Shown here: positions 9,479 to 48,282 of the stretch, one piece after another | Layout of the letters: each line of letters opens with the position of its first letter | How positions within the stretch are numbered: position 1 is the first letter of the stretch | Source of the DNA: an uncultured Bacilli bacterium | GTDB lineage: Bacteria > Bacillota_I > Bacilli_A > RFN20 > CAG-288 | NCBI GenBank assembly: GCA_944332485.1 | Contig: CALVKB010000001.1 | Span: forward strand, 22,924 to 86,923 | DNA length: 64,000 nt | Reading direction: 5' to 3' | Translations under genes and position numbers: made by a program | Notes under the pieces: model-generated | What the model was told of the DNA's origin: nothing | Seen by the model: the letters and a program-made list of their open reading frames with translations, nothing else | Database searches by the model: none

Positions 9479-11056
9479 ATGATTTATGTGATATTAGGCC
9501 AAACTGCTTCAGGGAAAACTTCTTTAGCTTTGAAACTTGCTAGAGAATTCAATTTGCCATTGATAAATTGTGATGCTTTTCAGTGTTACAAGCAGATGAA
9601 TATCGGAACTGCCAAACCAAAAAAAGAAGAACTTGAAAATGTTGAACATTATTTTATCAATAACGTTGATATAACCGATGCCATCAATGTTAAAAAATTT
9701 CAAGAACAAGGTAGACAACTTATAGATAAACTTACAAAAGAAAATAAAGACATCATCATTTCAGGTGGTACAAGTTTATATATTAGAGCTCTGTTATTCA
9801 ATTATGAATTCCCTGATATTGATAACAAAATATACGATGAATTATCTTTATACCCGTTAGATGAACTTTTAAAAATTTTGGAAGAACTCGATATTGAAAC
9901 ATACAATAACATCGACAAAAACAATAAAAGAAGAGTCGTAACAGCTGTCGCTTTGGCAAAAAATAATTTTTCAAGAGATGATCTTGTGAAAAAATTCAAC
10001 AATAAACCTTTATATCCTTGTTTGTTTTTCAATATTGATGTTGATAAAGAGGATATCAATGAAAAAATTGACTTAAGAGTTGAGACGATGTTTGTTGAAA
10101 ACTTAGTAAATGAAATTGAATATTTGATACAAAATTACGACTACAACAAACTCAACGCTTTTAAAGCCATCGGCTACAAAGAGTTCTTAAATTATATCAA
10201 TGAAGATAAAACAATCGATAAAAGTAAACTTGAACAAATCAAACAAGATATCAAAACACACACTCATCAATATGCTAAAAGACAAAGAACTTTTATAAAA
10301 ACTCAATTTTCCAATGTGAAAAATTTATCACCAGAAATGATATATTCTCGTATTATGATCGATCAAAGTATCAAACAAAGAACTAAATTGATGCTTGATC
10401 AAAAAATATTGAGCCAAATAGAAAATATGCATTTTTTAGTCTGTGGTCTTGGAGGTGTTGGTAGTTTGATACCTGAATATTTAGTAAGATTAGGTGCAAA
10501 AAACATCGATATTTTGGATTTTGACAAAGTTGATTTAACTAATCTAAACCGACAGATAAGTTACAATCTTGATGATGTTGGAAAAGATAAAATAGATGTT
10601 ATAAGTGAAAAACTTGCAAAGATAAATCCTTCAGTTAATATAACTTCACTGAAGATGAAATTAGATAAGTTTAATATGATAGACAAACAGTATGATTTTA
10701 TCTTCGATTGTATTGATTCAATTGAGGGAAAAGCATATTTAACTAAATATTCAATCGATAATAACATCCCAATTATTATAAGTGGCGGTGCTGGTAAAAA
10801 AATAGATTCCACCAAGACAAAAATTGAAAAGATAACAAAATCAAATGACGTTTTGATAAAAAAATATCTTGAATATTTAAAACCTATATTAACAAAAGAT
10901 GATCATCTAAATTCAATATATTGTGTTTGTTCGAATGATACAAATATCAAAACAAAAAATAAAACAATATCTTCAATCCCAACTGTCCCTAACAGTTTCG
11001 GTTTGGCCATGATATCATTTTTACTAAAGAGAATTGTAGGAGGTTTTAATATATGA
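9479..11056 (+). CDS. miaA: Fusion: tRNA dimethylallyltransferase MiaA (N) + TcdA/CsdL-type tRNA threonylcarbamoyladenosine dehydratase (ThiF/E1 fold, C)
   Basis: N-terminus has P-loop GQTASGKTSLA and YAKRQRTF (MiaA). From about residue 300: LVCGLGGVGS...DFDKVDLTNLNRQ...SGGAGKKIDSTK...CVCSND, matching E. coli TcdA (VVGIGGVGS..DMDDVCVTNTNRQ..TGGAGGQIDPT..CVFSTE). Confidence 0.8.
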   Translation: MIYVILGQTASGKTSLALKLAREFNLPLINCDAFQCYKQMNIGTAKPKKEELENVEHYFINNVDITDAINVKKFQEQGRQLIDKLTKENKDIIISGGTSLYIRALLFNYEFPDIDNKIYDELSLYPLDELLKILEELDIETYNNIDKNNKRRVVTAVALAKNNFSRDDLVKKFNNKPLYPCLFFNIDVDKEDINEKIDLRVETMFVENLVNEIEYLIQNYDYNKLNAFKAIGYKEFLNYINEDKTIDKSKLEQIKQDIKTHTHQYAKRQRTFIKTQFSNVKNLSPEMIYSRIMIDQSIKQRTKLMLDQKILSQIENMHFLVCGLGGVGSLIPEYLVRLGAKNIDILDFDKVDLTNLNRQISYNLDDVGKDKIDVISEKLAKINPSVNITSLKMKLDKFNMIDKQYDFIFDCIDSIEGKAYLTKYSIDNNIPIIISGGAGKKIDSTKTKIEKITKSNDVLIKKYLEYLKPILTKDDHLNSIYCVCSNDTNIKTKNKTISSIPTVPNSFGLAMISFLLKRIVGGFNI

Positions 11057-12624
11057 ATATCAAAAGAAAACTTATAAAGGATTTTAATGTTAAAAAAGAA
11101 AGTTTGATCAACTACTACAATGATGAAATTTACAAAATCAATTATAAAATGTACGACGAACTACCTTATAAAGGTAAGCTTATTTTAGTCACAGCCATGA
11201 CACCTACAATCTACGGTGAAGGAAAAACAACCGTTTCTATAGGTTTAGCTGATGCGATGAACTACATAAAAAAGAATGTTCTTTTATCACTTCGTGAACC
11301 TTCTTTAGGTCCGGTATTTGGAACAAAAGGTGGAGCAGCTGGCGGTGGCAAATGCTTACTGATACCTGAGGATAAAATCAATACTAGATTCACTGGCGAT
11401 TTTGATAACGTTGCAACAGTTAACAATTTGATCTCCTCTGTTATCGATAATGAGATGTACTTCAACTCAAGCTTAAATATATCTTCAGAGAGAATAGTTT
11501 TCCATCGTTGCATGGATGTTTGTGATAGATTTTTAAAAGATCTCACTTTCCATATGGATAGGAAAAAATCACCGAATATTGAATACAAATCAAGTTTTGT
11601 CATTACTGCCGCAAGTGAAATAATGGCTATATTTACGCTAAGTCAAGATGAAAACGACTTTAAATCTCGCTTAGAAGATGTTACTGTTGCATTCTCAACT
11701 GACAACAGAAGAATAACCGTTAAAGATTTGAATATAACCAACGCTTTGATGAGTTTGATGAAAGAAACTTTATACCCGAATGTTGTCAAAACAAAATGCA
11801 ACACACTCTCATTAGTTCACGCTGGTCCTTTTGCAAATATCGCCACTGGAACATCAAGTGCAATATCTTTGAAACTCGCATTGAAACTTAGTGATTATGT
11901 TATAACTGAATGTGGATTTGGAGCTGATCTCGGTTTTGAAAAATACATCGATATCGTGTCTCGTAACAATAAGATATATCCTGATTTGACAATACTTGTT
12001 GCAACCATCAAAGCCATCAAATATCACGGCGATGGAAACTTGGAATTAGGTTTTGAAAATGTTAAGAAGAATGTTGAACTAATAAGAAAAACTAACATCG
12101 AACCTATCATTGCCATAAATAAATTCAACGATGATTCTTCTGAAGATATTAAACTCGTACAAAAATTATGTGAAAAGAACAATATCGAATATTCATTTGT
12201 CACATCCTACAAAGATGGTAATAAAGGTGCTGTTGATTTAGCAAATAAAGTTGTAGAAAAATTGCAAAATAAAAAAGAAAACGACATCAAGTTTTTCTAC
12301 AACTTTGAAGATACAATTGAGAATAAAATTTTTGCAATTGCTAAAAATGTCTATGGCTGTAAAGATGTAGAATACAGCCAAAAAGCCTTGGATGATATAA
12401 AAGTTATAAATGAAAATGGTTTGAGTAACTTTGCAATTTGTATGGCTAAAACACCAAACAGTTTCACCGATGATAAGAATGTGAAAAACAGAGGTGACAA
12501 TTCAACACTTCATATACAAAAAATTGAATTTAATTCAGGTTCAAGACTTCTAATTCCATATACTGGTGAGATGATTTTGATGCCCGGTTTATCAAAAGAT
12601 CCATTGATCAAACATTTTAAATAA
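11053..12624 (+). CDS. fhs: Formate--tetrahydrofolate ligase
   Basis: TPTIYGEGKTTVSIGL and REPSLGPVFGTKGGAAGGG are signature Fhs motifs. Confidence 0.95.
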   Translation: MNIKRKLIKDFNVKKESLINYYNDEIYKINYKMYDELPYKGKLILVTAMTPTIYGEGKTTVSIGLADAMNYIKKNVLLSLREPSLGPVFGTKGGAAGGGKCLLIPEDKINTRFTGDFDNVATVNNLISSVIDNEMYFNSSLNISSERIVFHRCMDVCDRFLKDLTFHMDRKKSPNIEYKSSFVITAASEIMAIFTLSQDENDFKSRLEDVTVAFSTDNRRITVKDLNITNALMSLMKETLYPNVVKTKCNTLSLVHAGPFANIATGTSSAISLKLALKLSDYVITECGFGADLGFEKYIDIVSRNNKIYPDLTILVATIKAIKYHGDGNLELGFENVKKNVELIRKTNIEPIIAINKFNDDSSEDIKLVQKLCEKNNIEYSFVTSYKDGNKGAVDLANKVVEKLQNKKENDIKFFYNFEDTIENKIFAIAKNVYGCKDVEYSQKALDDIKVINENGLSNFAICMAKTPNSFTDDKNVKNRGDNSTLHIQKIEFNSGSRLLIPYTGEMILMPGLSKDPLIKHFK

Positions 12625-12667
12625 TTTAACTTTAATTTAAACAAAACAATAATATAAAATAATAGTA

Positions 12668-13504
12668 ATGATTCAGTTATTAGGTAAAGATTTAAGAAAA
12701 AAAGATATCGCAGAATTGAAAGACAAGGCTAGCAAAAATGTTAACCTAACTTTTTATTTGGTTTATGACCCATCGTTCAACGAATCCTGTTCATACGTAA
12801 ATTCAATTATTAAAACACTCGATAAAGTGGGTTGGCAACATGTCACTTACAAACTTACAAAATCATACAGAGATTATGGTGCTTTAAATAAGATTCGCTC
12901 CATAAAAGATTCGATGGTCATTTTAGCAAGACCAGTTCTTTTTGATGAAGAAACTTTGATCTCTTTGATCGATTATAGAAGTGATCCAGATATGTTGACT
13001 GATTTCAACAAAGGAAAACTTTACTCTGGCAATTTGAACTATCTTCCAGCAACAGCCATGTCTGTTAGAAGGCTTGTTGAATATTACAACATCGATTGTA
13101 AAGGAAAGAAAGTTTTGGTTATCGGAAGAAGCATCTCAGTTGGTTTACCTATATTCATGTATTTTCAAAGAAAGAATGCAACATGTACATTAGCTCATTC
13201 CAAAACCGAGAAGATTGATTTGAATAAAGCTATCATCGAGTCAGATATAATTGTTTTGGCAACCGGTAAACAAGGTTTGATCGATAGAAAATTTTTGAAC
13301 AATAAACAGATAATAATAGATTGTGGTTATCATTCAAATGGCACTGGTGATTTAGGGTTTGTTCCAAATGATAATGAACTTTATGCTTACACTCCAGTCC
13401 CAGGAGGCGTTGGACCACTAACTATTACAAGTTTGTTGAAAAATGCCTTGTTATTACATACTCTTTACAAAAATTCAAAAGAGAAAGAATTGAACAATTT
13501 TTAA
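12668..13504 (+). CDS. folD: Bifunctional methylenetetrahydrofolate dehydrogenase/cyclohydrolase
   Basis: VLVIGRSISVGLP...CTLAHSKT...PVPGGVGPLTI; conserved FolD motifs. Confidence 0.9.
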   Translation: MIQLLGKDLRKKDIAELKDKASKNVNLTFYLVYDPSFNESCSYVNSIIKTLDKVGWQHVTYKLTKSYRDYGALNKIRSIKDSMVILARPVLFDEETLISLIDYRSDPDMLTDFNKGKLYSGNLNYLPATAMSVRRLVEYYNIDCKGKKVLVIGRSISVGLPIFMYFQRKNATCTLAHSKTEKIDLNKAIIESDIIVLATGKQGLIDRKFLNNKQIIIDCGYHSNGTGDLGFVPNDNELYAYTPVPGGVGPLTITSLLKNALLLHTLYKNSKEKELNNF

Positions 13505-27322: not shown

Positions 27323-27451
27323 ATTCTCCCTTCAGTATTATTGTAGCAAAATTTAAATTGTATTCTTTAATTATTTTAAAAAATTAGTTTTTTTACAACA
27401 ATAAAACAATAAAAAAAGCCTTGATTATTCAAGACTGCCATAAACAAGATA

Positions 27452-27536
27452 TGCCCGGGGCGGGAATCGAACCCGCATGGATGTTTAGTCCGCAGGATTT
27501 TAAGTCCTGTGCGTCTACCAATTTCGCCACCTGGGC
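27452..27536 (-). tRNA. tRNA-Leu (anticodon UAA), no encoded CCA
   Basis: Reverse complement folds as a cloverleaf with a long variable arm, T-arm GCGGGTTCGATTCCCGC and anticodon loop CUUAAAA. Confidence 0.8.
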
Positions 27537-27540
27537 AAAA

Positions 27541-27613
27541 TGACTCGCGGCAGGTTCGAACTGCCGACCCCTTGATTAAAAGTCAAGTGCTCTTCCGACT
27601 GAGCTAGCGAGCC
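27541..27613 (-). tRNA. tRNA-Lys (anticodon UUU)
   Basis: Reverse complement GGCTCGCTAGCTCAGTCGGAAGAGCACTTGACTTTTAATCAAG...GGCAGTTCGAACCTGCCGCGAGTCA; anticodon loop CUUUUAA. Confidence 0.85.
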
Positions 27614-27622
27614 ATGTATAAT

Positions 27623-27697
27623 TGGCTGGGGTACCTGGATTCGAACCAGGGCATAATAGAGTCAAAGTCTACTGCCTTACCGCTTGGCTATACCCCA
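27623..27697 (-). tRNA. tRNA-Gln (anticodon UUG), CCA encoded
   Basis: Reverse complement TGGGGTATAGCCAAGCGGTAAGGCAGTAGACTTTGACTCTAT...CCAGGTACCCCAGCCA. U1-A72 pair as in Bacillus tRNA-Gln. Confidence 0.85.
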
Positions 27698-27703
27698 ATT
27701 GGA

Positions 27704-27787
27704 TGGTGGGCGAGAGTGGATTCGAACCACTGAACCCGAAGGAACAGATTTACAGTCTGCCGCGTTTAGCCTCTTCGCTACTCACCC
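27704..27787 (-). tRNA. tRNA-Tyr (anticodon GUA), CCA encoded
   Basis: Reverse complement GGGTGAGTAGCGAAGAGGCTAAACGCGGCAGACTGTAAATCTGTT + long variable arm + GTTCGAATCCACTCTCGCCCACCA. Confidence 0.85.
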
Positions 27788-27823
27788 AGTTTTATCCAAG
27801 TAATTTAGTCGCGTGTTTTACTA

Positions 27824-27899
27824 TGGTGGATGTTGAGAGGCTCGAACTCCCGACCCCCACCTTGTAAGGGTGATGCTCTCCCAGCTGAGCTAAACATCC
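27824..27899 (-). tRNA. tRNA-Val (anticodon UAC), CCA encoded
   Basis: Reverse complement GGATGTTTAGCTCAGCTGGGAGAGCATCACCCTTACAAGGTGGGGGTCGGGAGTTCGAGCCTCTCAACATCCACCA. Confidence 0.88.
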
Positions 27900-40337: not shown

Positions 40338-41834
40338 ATGCCAAAATTTCATTTTTTAGCAACAGATGGTATGACTAAAATCGACGGTCATAAATATCCG
40401 CATTGTGACACTCCGATAATCAAATACGATCCTGATAAGGTCTACATTCAAGCAGTAGATAACAAAGGTCTTCCTCTTAGTGAGATGGTCAAAGTTAATG
40501 ATACTGTTTGTGTTGGTACAGTGTTAGGAATACGTAACGATTTCAATTTACCCGTTTACTCTTCAGTGAGTGGTAAAGTTGTCGCAATCGAAAAGAAAAC
40601 CTCCACAACAGTCGGAAGGTTAGTCGATCATTTTGTCATCGAGAATGACAAAAAATACACAAAAGTAAACTTGCCAAAACTTACTTCCAGAACTAAGGAA
40701 GCAGTGGTAGATTTACTCAAGAAAGGAAGCATCGTCGGTTTAGGTGGTGCCGGTTTCCCAACGTTCATCAAATACAATGTGAAACCTGGAACTGTCATTG
40801 ACACAATCTTAGTCAATGCGGTTGAATGTGAACCATATTTAACAACCGATTATGTGGAAGGTGCTAGAAGTGTCAACGATATGTTCTACGCTTTACCAAT
40901 TTTGATGGAAATCGTAGAAGCAAAACAAGCTATCATCGCTTGTAAAGAGAATAAAAAACACCTTATTGATGCAATCAAGAACGCTATCAATGAGCACAAG
41001 GAAGTCAATGCAAAATTGGTTTTAGTTAAAGACCGTTACCCGATGGGTTTTGAAAGAACACTCATCCGTGAAGTCTTAAAAAGAGAATATGAAGTTCTTC
41101 CAAGTGAATGCCACGTTATCGAAAACAACATTCAGACACTGGAAGCTGCTGGAAGACTTTTCAGAGATGGTGAAGTTATCACCAGACGTGTTATCACCAT
41201 CGCTGGTGAAGCTGTCGCAACACCAAACAACTATGATGTTCCAGTTGGAACCATGTTAAATGACATAGTTGTTAATAACGGTGGTTACAGCTGTGAGGAA
41301 GTCAAGGTTATCAATGGTGGTCCGATGTGTGGTAAAGCTGTCTTGACAACCGAAATACCAGTTTTACTTCAAACCGGTGGTTTCACAATCTTACATAGAT
41401 ATGACATCAAAGCTGAACCATGTTGGAAATGTGGTGCTTGCGTTGATCACTGTCCTATGGGATTACAGCCAGTGCAAATTCAGATGGCTATCAATAGAGG
41501 AGATGTCGAGCGTTGCCACGATCTCCAAGTTGAAAAATGTGTTGAATGTGGATTATGTTCATTTGTCTGTCCAAGTCATATCGATGTTTCCGCAAATGTC
41601 AGCAAAGCTAAATTGATGGCAAGGTTGAAATTCAAACCTGGTGTCAAATCACAAAAAGAAGAACAACGTGAGAAGATAAAAGCTTCACTTCAAAAATTCA
41701 AAGATCTCTTCAAAAAGAAAACTCCAGAGGAGAAAAAACTTATTGAAGAGAAGAAAAAAGAAGCAAAAGAAGCAAAACTTAGATCAAAACAACAAAAGCA
41801 AGAAGTTAAACAAACAGAAAAGGAGGGTAACTAA
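40338..41834 (+). CDS. rnfC: Rnf electron-transport complex subunit C
   Basis: GLGGAGFPT NADH/FMN site; two 4Fe-4S motifs CWKCGACVDHCP and CVECGLCSFVCP; Lys/Glu-rich C-terminal tail. Confidence 0.93.
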   Translation: MPKFHFLATDGMTKIDGHKYPHCDTPIIKYDPDKVYIQAVDNKGLPLSEMVKVNDTVCVGTVLGIRNDFNLPVYSSVSGKVVAIEKKTSTTVGRLVDHFVIENDKKYTKVNLPKLTSRTKEAVVDLLKKGSIVGLGGAGFPTFIKYNVKPGTVIDTILVNAVECEPYLTTDYVEGARSVNDMFYALPILMEIVEAKQAIIACKENKKHLIDAIKNAINEHKEVNAKLVLVKDRYPMGFERTLIREVLKREYEVLPSECHVIENNIQTLEAAGRLFRDGEVITRRVITIAGEAVATPNNYDVPVGTMLNDIVVNNGGYSCEEVKVINGGPMCGKAVLTTEIPVLLQTGGFTILHRYDIKAEPCWKCGACVDHCPMGLQPVQIQMAINRGDVERCHDLQVEKCVECGLCSFVCPSHIDVSANVSKAKLMARLKFKPGVKSQKEEQREKIKASLQKFKDLFKKKTPEEKKLIEEKKKEAKEAKLRSKQQKQEVKQTEKEGN

Positions 41835-41836
41835 CT

Positions 41837-43702
41837 ATGGTCAAAACTGCAATTCAAAATTCACCCCATCTCAGAGGTAAAAACTCGACCTTCAAGATGA
41901 TGATGGAATTTTTGATCGTCGTTAGCATTCTTTGGGTTTGTTCAATTATCTACTATTTTGTAGGTGATTTTGCAAATTATTACAGTGTCCAATACGGTCT
42001 TAAAGCCATCGGAATGGGTGTAAGCTGTGTTTTATTCGCATTTATAACCGATGCTATTTTCTATCTTCCTATCTTTTGGAAAGATGAGAAACGTCTCAAA
42101 CTTGCCAAAGGTGAAACAAGAGTTAAAAGTTACTTTAAGAAGTTGATTTTCAACTATTCTTACGTAACAGGTTTGTTGATTGCATTATTATTCCCAATCG
42201 GTACTCCTGTTTATGTATTATTTGTCTGTACTTTCATCTCCGTTTTCATCTTCAAAAATCTCTTCGGAGGTTTTGGAGCCAACATCTTCAATCCAGCTAT
42301 CATAGGAAGAGTTATCGGACAGATAGCATTTGCTGGCCAATTGAAAACATATCTTGGTGAAAATGCACCTACCTCTGAATTTTTAAACAGCGGTGCTTCC
42401 TTGACAAGCCAATTTGCTGGTACATCAAATTCAATCGGATATGGATTTAGCCAAATTTCAACTTTGAATCTTTTCATAGGAAATTATGTTGGAACCTTAG
42501 GTGAAACATTCGCTATTGTCATAATCATTCTCGCTGTTTATTTGATGGTTAGAAAAATCATCGACTGGAGAGTTGTACTTTCATTTGTTGTCACTTTCTA
42601 TTTGACATATTTCTTGATCAATCTCTGTTCTGGTAAAGGTGTGAATTCATTTGAGAATGCCTTTAGACAATTATGTGTCGGCGGTGCTTTGTTCGGTGCA
42701 GTATTTTGTTTAACAGACCCTGTTACAAGCCCAGTCAACAGAACCGGTAAGATAATCTTTGCAACAGGTAGTGCTTTGATTACTATCGTTATTAGAATTT
42801 TCGCATCTGCTCCTGAAGGAATGGCTTATTCAATCCTTGTTATGAATATGCTCGTCCCGATGATCGATTACTTCACAAGTGAAAGAACAAATAAACACAT
42901 GTGGAAAAAATACACCGCAATCTCAATCATCCCTGCTGCAAGTATCATATTAGGTTGTTCCTATGGTGGTGTTAATTATGTAGCTCCTGTCAAACCAGTT
43001 ACTCCTACAGGTGACGTGGTTTTATCAAAAATTAAAGTTTCAAATAACTATGCTGATTATGGCCATTATGAATTGAATGTCACTGTTGGTACAGATTTCA
43101 AGGTTTACCAAATTGAGATACTTACTCATTCATACACACTTGAAGATTCGTGGATTCAAGGTGGAAGTCATAGTCATGTGATGGAAACTGATTTTACAGA
43201 ATTTGTCAACACATATATTCCAACAGCTTCTAAAGCTATAAGTTTTGCAACTTACGATAATTGTTCATTAAGTGATATTAATAATATTCAAAGTAATTCA
43301 ACTGAAGCAACATATGGATTAGTTTTAGCTGTTCAAAAAGCTATCAATGAATACAAAGCTGAATATACAAAGATCACTGTCGATCATAAAGGTACACAGT
43401 ATTTCGATTCTTTCAGTGGAAATGTTTATATCAATGATGACAAAGTATATTACACTGAGATTACAGATGCTTCCATTGAAATGGATTGCACAATCGATGA
43501 ATTTTTAAATGGTGGCTCTCACACAACTGATACAAGTGTCGATTCAACTGAATTTTCAGAACGTTATATCAACCGTGGTGATGGTATTCCTTTCTCCGTT
43601 TTTGAAGGAACAAAAGTGACTGTAGCTGGTGCTACAATTACTTCCAGTGGATATATTGATTTTGTCAATGAAGCTATCCAACAATATAAAGCGAGCAAAT
43701 AG
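41837..43702 (+). CDS. rnfD: Rnf subunit D fused to about 260-aa C-terminal extension (extra TM + two repeat modules, the last with an FMN-binding-type VAGATITS motif)
   Basis: NqrB/RnfD core (about 350 aa, ends ...VMNMLVPMIDYFT), then an extra TM (AISIIPAASIILGCSYGG) and a soluble domain. That domain is paralogous to the C-terminus of the next gene (NVYINDDKVYYTEI...LNGGSHTT...VAGATITSSGYIDF). Confidence 0.85.
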   Translation: MVKTAIQNSPHLRGKNSTFKMMMEFLIVVSILWVCSIIYYFVGDFANYYSVQYGLKAIGMGVSCVLFAFITDAIFYLPIFWKDEKRLKLAKGETRVKSYFKKLIFNYSYVTGLLIALLFPIGTPVYVLFVCTFISVFIFKNLFGGFGANIFNPAIIGRVIGQIAFAGQLKTYLGENAPTSEFLNSGASLTSQFAGTSNSIGYGFSQISTLNLFIGNYVGTLGETFAIVIIILAVYLMVRKIIDWRVVLSFVVTFYLTYFLINLCSGKGVNSFENAFRQLCVGGALFGAVFCLTDPVTSPVNRTGKIIFATGSALITIVIRIFASAPEGMAYSILVMNMLVPMIDYFTSERTNKHMWKKYTAISIIPAASIILGCSYGGVNYVAPVKPVTPTGDVVLSKIKVSNNYADYGHYELNVTVGTDFKVYQIEILTHSYTLEDSWIQGGSHSHVMETDFTEFVNTYIPTASKAISFATYDNCSLSDINNIQSNSTEATYGLVLAVQKAINEYKAEYTKITVDHKGTQYFDSFSGNVYINDDKVYYTEITDASIEMDCTIDEFLNGGSHTTDTSVDSTEFSERYINRGDGIPFSVFEGTKVTVAGATITSSGYIDFVNEAIQQYKASK

Positions 43703-43713
43703 GAGGTTAATTT

Positions 43714-44820
43714 ATGTCAGAAGAATTGAAAGATAAAGTTAACAAAGAGGTTACTACCTCCCAAAATGAAGCTTCAAAAGACACTTCAAAAGAAAACAAA
43801 AAACAGAAAAAAGTGAAAAAAGCAAAAACAAAGAAACCTTTGAGCAATTTCATCTTATTCCCGATTGTTTTAGGTTCTGTATGTTTGATCTCGGCTGGTG
43901 CTATAGCTGGTATCAATTATTTAACTGAGCCAATCATCGCACGTAATGCTGAGAAAAAGTATCTCAAATCCTGTTACAAATTATTAGGTAACGAAAACAT
44001 CGACAAAACTCAAGGTACTGATGGTCTTAGTAAAGCTGATGTTCCAACAAGTGCCAGCTACATTTTGCAAGCTTACAAAGTCTTTGTCACCAGTGAATTT
44101 GCTTCAGCACATTCTGAATACTCCGATTTTTATTACTATGTCTTACAAACTCCATCCGGTTACAAAGGCAGTGTTACATTAGCTTGTATCATCGCTGGTA
44201 CATACGGAGAAGATGGCGTTTTGTATGATATGATGGCTATCGATACAACAAGTGAAGATGCACTTGGTGCCGGTCAACTTCAAAATGTGACTGTTAAACC
44301 TGGCTACACAGGTGAAGATGGTGATAATCTTTTAGATTCAGGTTACATCACCAGTGGTGCCACAGCAAAAGTCACTTTCAACGCTGTCGATACAGCTATC
44401 AAACAAGCTATCCAAGTGTTTGAAGGTAAGATTATCCCAACTATCGGTTATCAAAAAACTGAAGATGGTTATGAAATTTACTATAACGAACATAGTATTG
44501 AAAATATGACATACTCCAGTTTTACCGGATATGTCTACATCAAGGATGAGAAAGTCTACAATGTTGAAATTTTAAGTTCAACAAACACAATTGGTGCAAA
44601 AGATAACGCCTGGCTCAATGGTGGATCCTACAGTTATTACGAAGATATGTTAGATTTCACATCATTCTCCAACAAATATGTCAATGCAACTGATGGTGTG
44701 AGCTTCGATGTATTTTCAAGTGATCCAGTTTATGTTGCTGGAGCTACCCAAGCTACCGAAGGCTATGTTGAATTTATCAGAAGTACAATAGAATTGTACA
44801 ATGAACATCATAATAAATAA
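43714..44820 (+). CDS. rnfG: Rnf subunit G with additional C-terminal FMN-binding-like module (two SGAT-type motifs)
   Basis: K-rich N-tail, TM, RnfG/NqrC-like FMN_bind region with ITSGATAKVT. A second module YVYIKDEKVYNVEI...LNGGSYSY...VAGATQATEGYVEF follows. 368 aa, whereas RnfG is usually about 200. Confidence 0.8.
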   Translation: MSEELKDKVNKEVTTSQNEASKDTSKENKKQKKVKKAKTKKPLSNFILFPIVLGSVCLISAGAIAGINYLTEPIIARNAEKKYLKSCYKLLGNENIDKTQGTDGLSKADVPTSASYILQAYKVFVTSEFASAHSEYSDFYYYVLQTPSGYKGSVTLACIIAGTYGEDGVLYDMMAIDTTSEDALGAGQLQNVTVKPGYTGEDGDNLLDSGYITSGATAKVTFNAVDTAIKQAIQVFEGKIIPTIGYQKTEDGYEIYYNEHSIENMTYSSFTGYVYIKDEKVYNVEILSSTNTIGAKDNAWLNGGSYSYYEDMLDFTSFSNKYVNATDGVSFDVFSSDPVYVAGATQATEGYVEFIRSTIELYNEHHNK

Positions 44821-44831
44821 GGAGGTCGGAT

Positions 44832-45644
44832 ATGTCAGAAAATAAAATTAATACTGCTGATGTTGAAAAAAGTTCAGAAGTAGTGAACTCTGCTGAATCA
44901 ACTCAAAAAAGTGCAGTTAGTACCAAAGTTACTGATAAACCTAAAAAAGTGAAGAAACCGAATGAATTATTGAAAGTATTCACAAACGGAATCATCAAAG
45001 ATAATGCCTTGTTAGTGATGCTTCTTGGTTTATGTCCTTTATTCCCTTCAACAACCTCAATAAACAACGCTATTGGTATGTCAGTTGCTGTTTTGTTCGT
45101 TCTTTTCTTCTCGAACATCATCATCAGTTCAATACGTAAAATCGTACCAAGCAACATCCGTGTTCCTGTGTACATCGTTGTTATCGCAACATTGGTTACA
45201 ATCGTCGAATTGTTGATGAAAGCATTCACTGAGACATTGTATGAACAACTCTCAGTTTTCATATCTTTGATCGTTGTTAACTGTATCATCTTAGGAAGAG
45301 CCGAAGCCTTTGCAAGCAAAAACTCCGTTGGCAAATCAGCTTTGGATGCTTTAGGTATCTCAATTGGTTTTGCGATGGTTTTGCTTATTGTCGCCTTCTT
45401 CCGTGAAGTCATCGGTACAGGTGGAATAACATTTGTCAATCCATTCACCGGCGATACCTTATTCACATTCTTGCCACTTGCTGATTTTGCTGTTCCAGTA
45501 TTCGTTCAAAGTTTCGGTGGATTTGTCACATTCGGTTTAGTTTTGGGTGTCTTCACAACCATCACCATGTGGAACAACGACCGCAAGATGAAGAAAGAAC
45601 AAAAAGAAAAATTAGCTTTGCAACAAGCTAAAGGAGGTAAATAA
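44832..45644 (+). CDS. rnfE: Rnf subunit E
   Basis: NqrD/RnfE family LGLCPLFPSTTSINNAIGMS with six TMs. About 45-aa K/S/T-rich N-terminal extension. Confidence 0.9.
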   Translation: MSENKINTADVEKSSEVVNSAESTQKSAVSTKVTDKPKKVKKPNELLKVFTNGIIKDNALLVMLLGLCPLFPSTTSINNAIGMSVAVLFVLFFSNIIISSIRKIVPSNIRVPVYIVVIATLVTIVELLMKAFTETLYEQLSVFISLIVVNCIILGRAEAFASKNSVGKSALDALGISIGFAMVLLIVAFFREVIGTGGITFVNPFTGDTLFTFLPLADFAVPVFVQSFGGFVTFGLVLGVFTTITMWNNDRKMKKEQKEKLALQQAKGGK

Positions 45645-45646
45645 AA

Positions 45647-46252
45647 ATGGTATTTTTAACTACATTCATATCTTCCTTATTAGTTAACAACGTCATACTA
45701 AGTGGAACAAAAGGCCTTTGCTCCTACATCGGACTTTCCAAAGATAAAAAAGCAACTTTAGGTATGTCGATCGCTTTGATCGTCGTTTGTGTTTTATCAG
45801 GTTTGATCTCCTGGGGCTTAGCCGCTTTATTGACACTTATCAACGCAACTTATTTATCAACAATCGTCAGCATCCTTGTCATCGCATCATTTGTTCAACT
45901 TCTTGAGATTTTCATCAAGAAATTCCTCCCAAGTTTGTATAAATCATTGGGTATTTACTTGCCATTGATTACAACAAACTGTGTTGTTATGGGTTTGGCT
46001 ATTTCAATTTTCTCAACATACGCAAAATATATCGATGGTACTCTTAGCTCCCTTGATAGTGCTTTGACCATCCTTGGTATGATCTTAGCTTATCCATTAG
46101 GTTACTTCATGGTTATCTATGTCTTTGCTTTCATTCAAGAGAGAATTCAAAACAACAACGAAACTCCACGTGGTTTCAAAGGTGCTGCTATCGCTTTTAT
46201 CGCAACAGCTGCTATGTGTTTAGCAATTTACGGCTTCACCGGACTTGTTTAA
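45647..46252 (+). CDS. rnfA: Rnf subunit A
   Basis: NqrE/RnfA family; six TMs; 201 aa. Confidence 0.9.
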   Translation: MVFLTTFISSLLVNNVILSGTKGLCSYIGLSKDKKATLGMSIALIVVCVLSGLISWGLAALLTLINATYLSTIVSILVIASFVQLLEIFIKKFLPSLYKSLGIYLPLITTNCVVMGLAISIFSTYAKYIDGTLSSLDSALTILGMILAYPLGYFMVIYVFAFIQERIQNNNETPRGFKGAAIAFIATAAMCLAIYGFTGLV

Positions 46253-46267: not shown

Positions 46268-46588
46268 TTGCTTTATAACTCAAATTTAAACTACCTTTGG
46301 ATGGTTTTGATAGTTTTGGGGGCTGTTGGTATATTTGTAAGTTTGTATCTTATAAATAAAAAAACTAAGCCTCCAAAAGACTGTCCGAAGAACATCGTCG
46401 GTTGCCAAGGTTGCATGCTTAACTGCAATAGAAGAGAAGAGGATTTCAATGTCAGTGATTATTTAAATCCTGATTTGACGAAAGTCAGATACGTGAAAAT
46501 TGAGAAAGTTAAAAAACTTAAAAAAGAGCAGTATATGCAAGAATCAGATAAACTGATGCGTGAAATTTTAAGTCAATATAAAAAGTAA
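46268..46588 (+). CDS. Small membrane protein with CPKNIVGCQGCMLNC cysteine cluster (TTG start after AGAGG, or ATG at 46301)
   Basis: One TM then C-x6-C-x2-C-x3-C. Sits between rnfA and rnfB, where no canonical Rnf gene is expected. Confidence 0.4.
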   Translation: MLYNSNLNYLWMVLIVLGAVGIFVSLYLINKKTKPPKDCPKNIVGCQGCMLNCNRREEDFNVSDYLNPDLTKVRYVKIEKVKKLKKEQYMQESDKLMREILSQYKK

Positions 46589-46599
46589 AGGAGAATTAT

Positions 46600-46929
46600 A
46601 TGTTACCAGTTTGGGCACAGATTGTTTTAGCAATTGTTGTAGTTGTTTTATTAGGTGTTCTTTTCAGTATATTGATCGCTGTTTTTTCAAAATACTTCGC
46701 TGTTAAAGAGGACCCTCGCAAAGAGAAAGTTATGTCTTTAATTCCAGGTGTTAACTGCGGTGCTTGCGGTCATCCTGGTTGTTCTGGCTTAGTTGATGCA
46801 TTGATCAGCGGCAAAGAAACACACGTCAAACAATGTAAAGTCATCAAAGATGACAAAGCTAATGAGATCAAAAACTACCTTAATGAAACTCCCGGACCTG
46901 ATGGTCAAACTTTGAAGGTAGATTTGTAA
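46600..46929 (+). CDS. rnfB: Rnf subunit B, minimal form (N-terminal membrane anchor + single Cys-cluster domain; no ferredoxin-type domains)
   Basis: FAVKEDPRKEKVMSLIPGVNCGACGHPGCSGLVDA...C aligns with the E. coli RsxB N-terminus ([35 protein letters not shown]). Stops after 109 aa with no CxxCxxCxxxCP dicluster region. Confidence 0.8.
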   Translation: MLPVWAQIVLAIVVVVLLGVLFSILIAVFSKYFAVKEDPRKEKVMSLIPGVNCGACGHPGCSGLVDALISGKETHVKQCKVIKDDKANEIKNYLNETPGPDGQTLKVDL

Positions 46930-46948
46930 TAAACATTTATATATCGAT

Positions 46949-47419
46949 ATGAAATTAAATTCCAAAGCAAAAAAAAGATACAACTTCAATTTTCAAGATG
47001 TCATCTTTATTTTGCTTGGAATTTTTTTAGTTATAAGTTTGTTGTTGTACACATTGTTCGGTATCAATAGAAACGTCAACGAGAACTCTTTTGTTGTTAT
47101 AACTTACGCTGGTACCGAAATTTACAACAGACCTATAACTGAAGAGAAGGACCCATTGGTCATAACAAAACAGATGGGAATAACAGGAGATCCCGAAAAC
47201 AATATACTTTCAATAGGTCGTGAGTTTGATTTTGTCGGACCAACTGTTGAAGTGAGAATCGTCGATATGACAATTCAGGTTGTTCAAGAGGATTCACCAC
47301 ATAAAATCTGCTCTAACCAAGGAGTTGTGAAATACGCCAATACCCCCATCATCTGCGAACCAAATTATATACAAGTTGTCATCGTTGATTACTCAAGTGA
47401 CAAACCGGACAATATGTAA
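46949..47419 (+). CDS. Membrane-anchored NusG_II-domain-like protein
   Basis: N-terminal TM. C-terminal SPHKICSNQGVV...PIICEPNYIQVVIV resembles the CP(D/H)KICV..G.I...IVCLPN.V.I signature of NusG domain-II proteins that accompany flavin transferases. Confidence 0.5.
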   Translation: MKLNSKAKKRYNFNFQDVIFILLGIFLVISLLLYTLFGINRNVNENSFVVITYAGTEIYNRPITEEKDPLVITKQMGITGDPENNILSIGREFDFVGPTVEVRIVDMTIQVVQEDSPHKICSNQGVVKYANTPIICEPNYIQVVIVDYSSDKPDNM

Positions 47420-47421
47420 CT

Positions 47422-47943
47422 ATGAACATAGAAAGAATCGTCAGAATAAGCTTATTTGTAGCTTTATCAACAGTTATACACTTTTTTGAATCGATGATTG
47501 TTATTCCAATTCCAATACCTGGATTCAAGTTGGGATTAGCGAATATTGTCGGTGTTTTTGTACTATTTTATTATGGTTATAAAGATTATGTCGGAGTTAC
47601 TTTTTTTAGAGTTTTGTTAGTTGCTATTTTGTTCAGTGGTTTTGGAACTGGATTTTTATTAAGTTTTGCTGGTAATTTATTCGCAGTATTAATAACAACT
47701 TTGATCTACTTTTTAACACGAAGTAGCATATTCAGTGCTTCTGTTTTAGGAGCTATATTCCACTCCATTGGTCAAGTGTTGATGTACATGCTTATCTCAC
47801 AAAGTGTTTATATAATCACATATTTACCATATTTAGCTATTTTAAGTATGCTAAGTGGTTTCTTACTAGCTTTGATATGCCGTATGGTATTAATAAGAAT
47901 GCCAGAATACAAAGACACAAGTAAGATAAGAAGAAAAAGATAA
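47422..47943 (+). CDS. Gx-transporter family membrane protein ('heptaprenyl diphosphate synthase component I'-like)
   Basis: Five or six TMs with glycine-rich GFGTGFLLSFAGN. Usually partnered with NusG_II and FMN-binding or ApbE genes. Confidence 0.65.
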   Translation: MNIERIVRISLFVALSTVIHFFESMIVIPIPIPGFKLGLANIVGVFVLFYYGYKDYVGVTFFRVLLVAILFSGFGTGFLLSFAGNLFAVLITTLIYFLTRSSIFSASVLGAIFHSIGQVLMYMLISQSVYIITYLPYLAILSMLSGFLLALICRMVLIRMPEYKDTSKIRRKR

Positions 47944-48015: not shown

Positions 48016-48282
48016 ATGATTGTTAAATATACTTATAAACCAGTTGGAGTTTGCTCACAACAGATGGATTTTGAAATAGATGACCAAACAAATAAAATCG
48101 TCAGTTTGAAAGTTACTCGTGGATGCAACGGTAACTTAAAAGGTATCAGCAAACTTGTTGAGAATAGAAGTGTTGAGGAAGTTATAAGTTTACTTGAGAA
48201 TATCGAATGTGGAACAAAACACACCAGTTGCCCAGATCAGATCGCTCAAGGTTTAAAACAATTTTTAGCTATTAAAAATTAA
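48016..48282 (+). CDS. TSCPD-domain protein
   Basis: 88 aa with the literal TSCPDQ motif plus GVCSQQ and RGCNGN cysteine motifs. Confidence 0.7.
   Translation: MIVKYTYKPVGVCSQQMDFEIDDQTNKIVSLKVTRGCNGNLKGISKLVENRSVEEVISLLENIECGTKHTSCPDQIAQGLKQFLAIKN

Follow-up and report, generated by a model that had tools for sequence, protein, structure and literature searches.

The rnf operon described here encodes an RnfB of only 109 residues. Judging from sequence and gene context, we consider it somewhat more likely than not that this protein is a working subunit of an intact Rnf complex, namely a natural one-cluster form whose polyferredoxin part was lost once, and that a soluble carrier reduces its single cluster directly. 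The operon lies in a 64-kb stretch of DNA (hereafter the window) with 32% G+C and TGA as a stop codon. In canonical RnfB, a membrane helix comes first, then a domain on a flexible tether that holds one [4Fe-4S] cluster, and last a C-terminal domain in which two to seven clusters take the electrons of ferredoxin (PMC12174285). When ferredoxin reduces the A. woodii complex, the B8 domain, with its single cluster, shifts in the direction of the RnfA/E cluster; ferredoxin docking is proposed to occur near clusters B1-B2, and the known RnfB isoforms have three to eight clusters (PMC11889175). Both papers confirm the statement in the first-pass annotation of this DNA that the ferredoxin domains are the entry site in canonical RnfB. 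The short RnfB is, by prediction, the membrane anchor and the counterpart of the A. woodii B8 domain, and nothing more.

The short rnfB gene and its operon

The rnf genes of the window and their neighbors are as follows:

40338-41834, plus strand: rnfC, 498 aa, with an NADH/FMN domain and two [4Fe-4S] motifs (TIGR01945, E 2e-88; Complex1_51K; RnfC_N)
41837-43702, plus strand: rnfD, 621 aa (PF03116, E 2.8e-66), with its core extending to about residue 351 and an SGAS site at 42389-42400
43714-44820, plus strand: divergent rnfG, 368 aa, assigned by a weak TIGR01947 match (E 3.3e-4), operon position and repeat homology, with an SGAT site at 44353-44364
44832-45644, plus strand: rnfE, 270 aa (PF02508, E 2.8e-54)
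45647-46252, plus strand: rnfA, 201 aa (PF02508, E 4.4e-38)
46268-46588, plus strand: X, unannotated, 106 aa from TTG 46268 after AGAGG, or 95 aa from ATG 46301
46600-46929, plus strand: short rnfB, 109 aa, assigned by Pfam, NCBIfam, profile and model evidence
46949-47419, plus strand: NusG_II-domain membrane protein, 156 aa (PF07009, E 2.7e-10)
47422-47943, plus strand: Hpre_diP_synt_I / ECF-S-like membrane protein, 173 aa (PF07456, E 2.6e-31; PF12822, E 1.6e-6, under the cutoff)

Within the short rnfB gene, these parts were recognized:

46609-46698: membrane helix, residues 4-33 (AF2 model)
46744-46839: PF04060 predicted [4Fe-4S] domain, residues 49-80
46756, 46765, 46780 and 46834: cysteine codons
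46876-46926: conserved tail YLNETPGPDGQTLKVDL, followed by the stop TAA TAA

The first-pass annotation had read the open reading frame at 46600-46929 as the N-terminus of RnfB, ending after 109 aa, and this proved to be exactly right, with PF04060 and the RnfB models matching it far beyond chance. A good ribosome-binding site, AGGAG, precedes the ATG start by 8 nt, and the gene closes with a double stop, one TAA being directly followed by another. The Pfam match to PF04060 ('FeS') lies above the gathering cutoff (E 1.3e-9; 38 bits vs a cutoff of 23) and includes all four cysteines, in the pattern C53-x2-C56-x4-C61-x17-C79. Twelve NCBIfam models matched the protein, the best being those for RnfB/RsxB (E 2e-13 to 2e-17), which cover it only via model positions ~3-92 of 190-293. 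Because only these first ~90 positions match, the whole-protein RnfB scores all fall under the curated cutoffs, as with TIGR01944 (50.3 bits, under its cutoff of 68.7). Helix 4-33 is followed by FAVKEDPR, giving the anchor and FxVxxDP linker of RnfB/RsxB, and the gene adjoins the rnf genes, with rnfC, D, G, E and A upstream. In the AlphaFold model (pLDDT 75.9) the helix is joined by a small domain of helices, and the tail is for the most part extended. The best fold match of the soluble domain, determined with Foldseek, was the [4Fe-4S] N-domain of CFeSP, i.e., the PF04060 fold. The C-terminal Fer4 domains of RnfB/RsxB were not found, there being neither a Fer4 match nor a CxxCxxCxxxC motif in the short RnfB ORF. 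The designation of the protein as an RnfB orthologue that lacks Fer4 domains is supported by both its sequence and its operon position.

The region downstream of the gene was equally free of ferredoxin signatures. As the first-pass annotation had reported, the three frames after the stop contain no Fe-S motif, and the next frame is that of the NusG_II-domain protein. A six-frame scan of the whole 64 kb identified CxxCxxCxxxC only twice, both times within RnfC (41421-41570), and no stand-alone polyferredoxin in the window. The acceptor of the RnfB cluster, on the other side of the transfer, is in place, as both [2Fe-2S] cysteine ligands are conserved in RnfE (GLCP and VVNCIILGR, in register with 7zc6_E) and in RnfA (GLCSY and TTNCVV, in register with 7zc6_A).

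The 3' end of rnfC (41625-41831) encodes a Lys/Glu-rich, low-complexity C-terminal tail of ~70 aa, and RnfC in related short-RnfB loci is only 421-445 aa. This tail might attract acidic carriers. Downstream of operons of the window's kind (type I, described below) the NusG_II and Hpre_diP_synt_I pair was always present (synteny of related loci L001-3 and L085-91), and in relatives L085-L091 apbE stands between rnfB and this pair. No ApbE was found within the 64-kb window. We infer that the trio of apbE, NusG_II and Hpre_diP_synt_I may provide flavin for external flavinylation. Between the rnf operon and metK lies a gene for a TSCPD-domain protein with four cysteines (88 aa, TIGR03905 family; 48016-48282, plus strand). 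Rfam identified no regulatory RNA near the rnf operon, its only matches in the window being five tRNA genes at 27.4-27.9 kb (27451-27899, minus strand: Leu-TAA, Lys-TTT, Gln-TTG, Tyr-GTA and Val-TAC), and promoter and terminator scans gave counts that were not above those in shuffled sequence.

Conservation and distribution of the short form

The same 109-aa product was called on 12 contigs from independent metagenomes. In the six closest database homologues (56-99% identity, 107-116 aa) C53, C56, C61 and C79 are invariant and the C-terminal tail is conserved. Comparison of length with relatives, which the first-pass annotation had proposed, yielded the same short form, in that relatives at 42-79% identity are 104-118 aa long, with coinciding ends and four invariant cysteines. 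Among the best 80 loci from species-representative genomes, the closest five (L001-L004 and L010; 42-49% identity) encode RnfB proteins of 104-108 aa in which no ferredoxin motifs were found. In the other loci RnfB is of the ordinary kind, 258-362 aa long in almost every case and bearing between one and five CxxCxxCxxxC motifs (one is 700 aa and a few run off the contig end). An exhaustive profile search, covering 1.84 billion representatives (50% identity), identified at least 48 complete short forms of 94-118 aa that aligned end to end. The source organisms of the short homologues were Erysipelotrichaceae, Bacilli and Firmicutes MAGs, and the rnf synteny of the short gene was repeated in 12 related lineages. 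In a rough neighbor-joining tree of short and full-length RnfB (~90 N-terminal residues, unrooted splits, without support values), 48 of the 51 filtered short sequences were on one side of a single split, together with one full-length sequence. Since relatives have the short form too, it is a trait of a clade and not a one-off. Selection has maintained it throughout this clade of low-GC gut Bacilli.

These data bear directly on whether the gene could be an artefact or a product of decay, that is, a piece of a full-length rnfB left by a sequencing frameshift, an assembly error or pseudogene formation. Apart from the short length and the sub-cutoff TIGR01944 score nothing speaks for such an origin, and it has to account for a double stop, for downstream frames that are clean of Fe-S motifs, for an identical protein in 12 assemblies, and for a length and ends that are conserved over dozens of clusters along with the cysteines. 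We consider it vanishingly improbable, and frameshift and pseudogene formation are refuted by these observations. The view in the first-pass annotation that this is no frameshift remnant is thus upheld, both by the identical product on 12 contigs and by relatives that stop at the same point. That annotation had also named an outcome that would count against its reading, namely a short RnfB in relatives combined with demonstrated ferredoxin coupling; the first half was found, whereas the second was not.

A further suggestion had been to look for a stand-alone polyferredoxin that could substitute for the missing domains. The sequence surveyed comprised the 64 kb of the window genome and ~20 kb per relative. 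Besides the window, in which none was detected, most related loci had no stand-alone polyferredoxin within 8-10 kb of the short rnfB; the exceptions were L004, with a ferredoxin of 60 aa at a distance of 6.5 kb, and L010, with an adjacent Fer4 flavoprotein of 934 aa. A nearby polyferredoxin as a general feature was rejected, given that these were the only two cases among the related loci. The L010 protein (10654-13458, plus strand) is encoded ~400 nt after the short rnfB and has two Fer4 motifs with Fer4_20 and Pyr_redox_2 domains (GltD/NfnB-like); it could be a redox partner in that lineage.

A small cysteine-rich membrane protein and two operon subtypes

Between rnfA and the short rnfB lies the gene for X, which the first-pass annotation had not noted and whose cysteines are encoded as follows:

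46382, 46403, 46412 and 46424: cysteine codons of X, in the arrangement KKTKPPKD-C-x6-C-x2-C-x3-C after one membrane helix

No family in Pfam or NCBIfam matched X above threshold. A profile search identified 183 homologues of 62-95 aa in which the four cysteines are invariant, spaced C-x9-C-x2-C-x4-C in most relatives and C-x6-C-x2-C-x3-C in the window, and which are called 'hypothetical' wherever they are named. X also contains a basic stretch, and based on the positive-inside rule the cysteine motif would face the cytoplasm. In all contexts of X that were fetched, the order was rnfA, X and a PF04060-only rnfB of 104-105 aa, then apbE, NusG_II and Hpre_diP_synt_I. In the sequence surveyed, a model built from the family found no X in 75 full-length rnfB loci and matched only between rnfA and a tail-bearing short rnfB, and in nine of nine tail-bearing lineages X overlaps or abuts both of these genes. 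X is a candidate for a new Rnf subunit or accessory protein.

Several known families were considered for X. As an RseC homologue it was rejected, with no Pfam match at E up to 10 and an hhalign probability of 0.3% to E. coli RseC, and likewise as a homologue of NqrM (DUF539), the Pfam NqrM family having no match in the window copy and six homologues. For PF12669 (FeoB_associated), the scores were sub-threshold only: against a cutoff of 27 bits, values of 15-24 bits (E 4.7e-5 to 0.03) were obtained for three of six homologues, and none for the window copy, and one database member of the X family bears a precomputed PF12669 label. Alignment of X with the short RnfB itself by hhalign gave a probability of 94% when the membrane helix was included and 44% (E 2e-4) for the soluble parts, in which the N-C-x2-C-x4-C motifs of the two proteins are in register. 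We regard this similarity as a motif resemblance, with homology not proven.

The short-RnfB operons were of two subtypes. In type I, which includes the window, X is present and RnfB bears a tail matching YLxx[TH]P[GN]xDGxxxxVxL. In type II (L004, L092 and L094/95), rnfA abuts a tail-less rnfB of 96-104 aa, and the loci bear extra FMN_bind proteins. Type II loci had no X even at E up to 10 and no NusG_II/Hpre pair, and apart from the L004 ferredoxin noted above, no gene with a ferredoxin motif was found near their short rnfB. X was thus present in 9/9 tail-bearing and 0/3 tail-less lineages, counts that are uncorrected for shared ancestry. This co-occurrence means that X and the RnfB tail may be in contact; type II, with its short RnfB and no X, indicates that the lost domain does not have to be replaced by X. 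Two RnfB-like proteins of another build were also observed, P0011 (182 aa) and P0081 (231 aa), in each of which a membrane anchor is joined to a tandem pair of PF04060 domains and Fer4 is absent; this is seemingly a third way to build an RnfB without a polyferredoxin.

One role that can be proposed for X is that of an electron relay. X would bind its own Fe-S center at the cytoplasmic surface of the membrane and replace the polyferredoxin, electrons passing from the donor to X, on to the RnfB cluster and then to RnfA/E, with the RnfB tail as the contact for X. We hold this role to be possible but rather unlikely. It fits the position of X in tail-bearing lineages and its absence from full-length loci, the invariance of the four cysteines with a C-x2-C-x4-C spacing equal to that of PF04060, the hhalign match with its cysteine triad in register, and the association with the tail. 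A precedent is RseC of E. coli, which is anchored in the membrane, forms an oxygen-sensitive Fe-S cluster with its CX5CX2CX5C motif and interacts with RsxB and RsxD (PMC11729352), and the variants P0011 and P0081 show that RnfB-like proteins with two PF04060 domains and no Fer4 exist. However, the type II operons indicate that X is unneeded for the short design, the hhalign signal comes mostly from the membrane helix and a 14-column motif, the association of X with the tail is confounded by shared ancestry, and cluster binding by X is a prediction. With a similarly tentative standing, rnfCDGEA-X-B may be described as a seven-subunit Rnf subtype in which two separately anchored single-center modules, the one-cluster RnfB and X, replace the polyferredoxin, X touching the RnfB tail, possibly deriving from a duplicated 5' part of rnfB and possibly bearing an Fe-S center that is the true ferredoxin entry or relay.

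Alternatively, X might be an assembly factor that supplies RnfB, or the [2Fe-2S] site of RnfA/E, with iron or a cluster, a role like that proposed for NqrM in NQR; the link of X to the short RnfB would then reflect only shared ancestry. NqrM is a small membrane maturation protein from the nqr operon that is needed for the membrane [2Fe-2S] center (PMC12174285); X resembles, below threshold, PF12669, a family of FeoB-associated Cys-rich membrane proteins described as iron-binding, and the maturation gene apbE shares the operon in relatives. We judge this role unlikely, considering that X has no Pfam match to the NqrM family, that canonical Rnf operons do without any X-like gene, and that a pure assembly role leaves the tracking of the RnfB tail by X unexplained.

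A gene like X may also have gone unannotated in a cultured organism. The rnf genes of Peloplasma aerotolerans M4Ah (Acholeplasmataceae) are numbered MDI6452236-38, -40-41 and -43, with two numbers skipped (PMC11122141), and the gap in numbering before its rnfB would fit an unannotated X-like gene.

Additional repeats in RnfD and RnfG

Both RnfD and RnfG of the window extend beyond their usual domains, which the first-pass annotation, as with X, had not noted:

42911-42973, plus strand: extra membrane helix of RnfD
43052-43360 and 43361-43699, plus strand: two ~100-aa repeats of RnfD
44491-44817, plus strand: extra C-terminal repeat of RnfG

The RnfD repeats are homologous to the C-terminal extension of RnfG (41% identity, E 1e-19), and these extra repeats would be located outside the cell. 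Against the FMN_bind family (PF04205; cutoff 22 bits), RnfD repeat 2 scored 19.8 bits (E 0.0013) and RnfG 12.3 bits, and RnfD repeat 1 had no match. Where the flavinylation motif [S/T]GA[S/T] is expected, the repeats read AGAT, AGAT and STEAT, and the AF2 model of the extra repeat of RnfD/RnfG reached a pLDDT of only 45. Extensions of RnfD were also present in L001, L002, L091 and L092, RnfG is 360-490 aa in L004 and L010, and L094 encodes additional proteins of FMN_bind type, one of 363 aa and one of 330 aa that has a lipoprotein-like signal.

The recurrence of such external flavin-domain expansions suggests that the job of the enzyme may have changed. On this reading, the complex would chiefly serve export, with NADH and perhaps RnfB supplying electrons for external flavin domains and outside acceptors; ferredoxin would have ceased to be its chief partner, and the domain that docks ferredoxin would therefore have been shed. 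Extra FMN_bind or FMN_bind-like modules do recur in the clade (in the window, two on RnfD and one on RnfG), and a second route to external acceptors via multi-flavinylated RnfG was proposed by Meheust et al. (PMC8238504). We nevertheless find such a change of function quite improbable. It is weakened by the several short-RnfB lineages in which RnfD and RnfG are of normal size (L003 and L085-L090); moreover, RnfA, RnfE and RnfB keep all their ligands, which would be senseless if that branch were idle, and the window repeats have FMN_bind scores that are sub-threshold only, in addition to the low pLDDT of their model.

Electron entry and its implications

As the ferredoxin-docking part is missing, this clade must feed electrons into the pump by a route not yet described. 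Direct reduction of the RnfB cluster by a soluble donor would be the likeliest entry route. According to the mechanism that we propose, the C-terminal polyferredoxin, the dock for ferredoxin, would have been lost once in the ancestor of a clade of low-GC gut Bacilli, after which the short form would have been kept by selection. A cytoplasmic low-potential carrier, either a ferredoxin or a flavodoxin, would directly reduce the single mobile cluster, and the PF04060 domain, as the counterpart of B8, would then swing onto RnfA/E and reduce the [2Fe-2S] center that is buried in the membrane. From there electrons would follow the usual U-shaped path, from RnfA/E to RnfG, RnfD and RnfC and finally to NAD+. 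In the subtype present in the window, the RnfB tail and X probably aid the docking or positioning of the donor, with neither being essential to the short design because the tail-less subtype has no X.

The net charge of the soluble part is -0.9 in the short RnfB versus -3.1 in the same domain of full-length proteins, and that of the lost part is +5.1. This small shift fits a moved docking surface or direct contact with acidic carriers, which we take as a weak hint. Conversely, one cluster on a flexible tether and with no fixed docking surface may make a poor ferredoxin acceptor, which argues against direct reduction. The wide variation in cluster number among other RnfB proteins (2 to 7 additional clusters) suggests that the C-terminal part is an adaptor and not part of the core.

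The Rnf complexes that have been studied biochemically or structurally have RnfB subunits with 3-8 clusters, and current mechanisms dock ferredoxin on the distal ones. A conserved natural enzyme that has the mobile proximal cluster only would mean that the polyferredoxin part is dispensable, and an Rnf with a short RnfB would offer a minimal system for how low-potential electrons reach the membrane [2Fe-2S] center. There is also a practical consequence. Since the short RnfB is under the NCBIfam curated cutoffs, annotation with full-length models may miss such proteins, even if some sources do label them RnfB, and Rnf could as a result be miscounted in gut Bacilli, Erysipelotrichaceae and relatives. 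For specialists, the questions raised are how a one-cluster RnfB gets reduced and what X does.

Comparison with known systems

Searches of the literature for a one-cluster, short or truncated RnfB, for RnfB of Erysipelotrichaceae and for Rnf of RF39 found nothing relevant in the searchable literature. The one-cluster RnfB is outside the range described there and is present, loosely annotated, in databases. The canonical references are RnfB of A. woodii (9ERI chain B, 333 aa, 8 clusters), C. tetanomorphum (7ZC6 chain B, 274 aa) and A. vinelandii (8AHX chain B, 174 aa, 3 clusters). Aligned against these structures, the short-family profile spans residues 4-88 of 9ERI_B and the equivalent stretches of the two remaining chains. 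Like these proteins, the short RnfB has an N-terminal helix, an FxVxEDPR linker, a C-x2-C-x4-C-x17-C PF04060 domain and a gene that follows rnfA in rnfCDGEA. Unlike them, with their 2-7 extra clusters, it ends after the first cluster domain, without Fer4 and the described docking region, and it carries a clade-specific tail of 17 residues.

Resemblances to other systems are more partial. In NqrF of Na+-NQR, electrons are likewise carried to a membrane [2Fe-2S] center by a small, flexible Fe-S domain on a membrane anchor; however, NqrF is unrelated in sequence and combines a [2Fe-2S] ferredoxin domain with an input domain for FAD/NADH, and the short RnfB lacks input domains of every sort. For the soluble domain of the short RnfB, the closest structure was the N-domain of the CFeSP large subunit (2YCL_A; Foldseek probability 0.99 over 58 columns), which shares PF04060 but belongs to a soluble methyl-transfer protein and not to a membrane complex, and the NCBIfam match of the short RnfB to CFeSP (1.9e-5) is much weaker than those to the RnfB models. 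X is comparable to RseC of the E. coli Rsx (SoxR-reducing) system in being, by prediction, membrane-anchored, with a cytoplasmic four-cysteine motif and an Rnf-type complex as its neighbor. The architectures differ, in that RseC (159 aa) has two helices after its cysteine domain and X (63-106 aa) has one helix before its cysteine motif. With the PF12669 proteins, which are common in Firmicutes, X shares a small size, a single membrane helix and a C-terminal Cys-rich motif, but it differs from them in its genomic context, which is rnf and not feoB.
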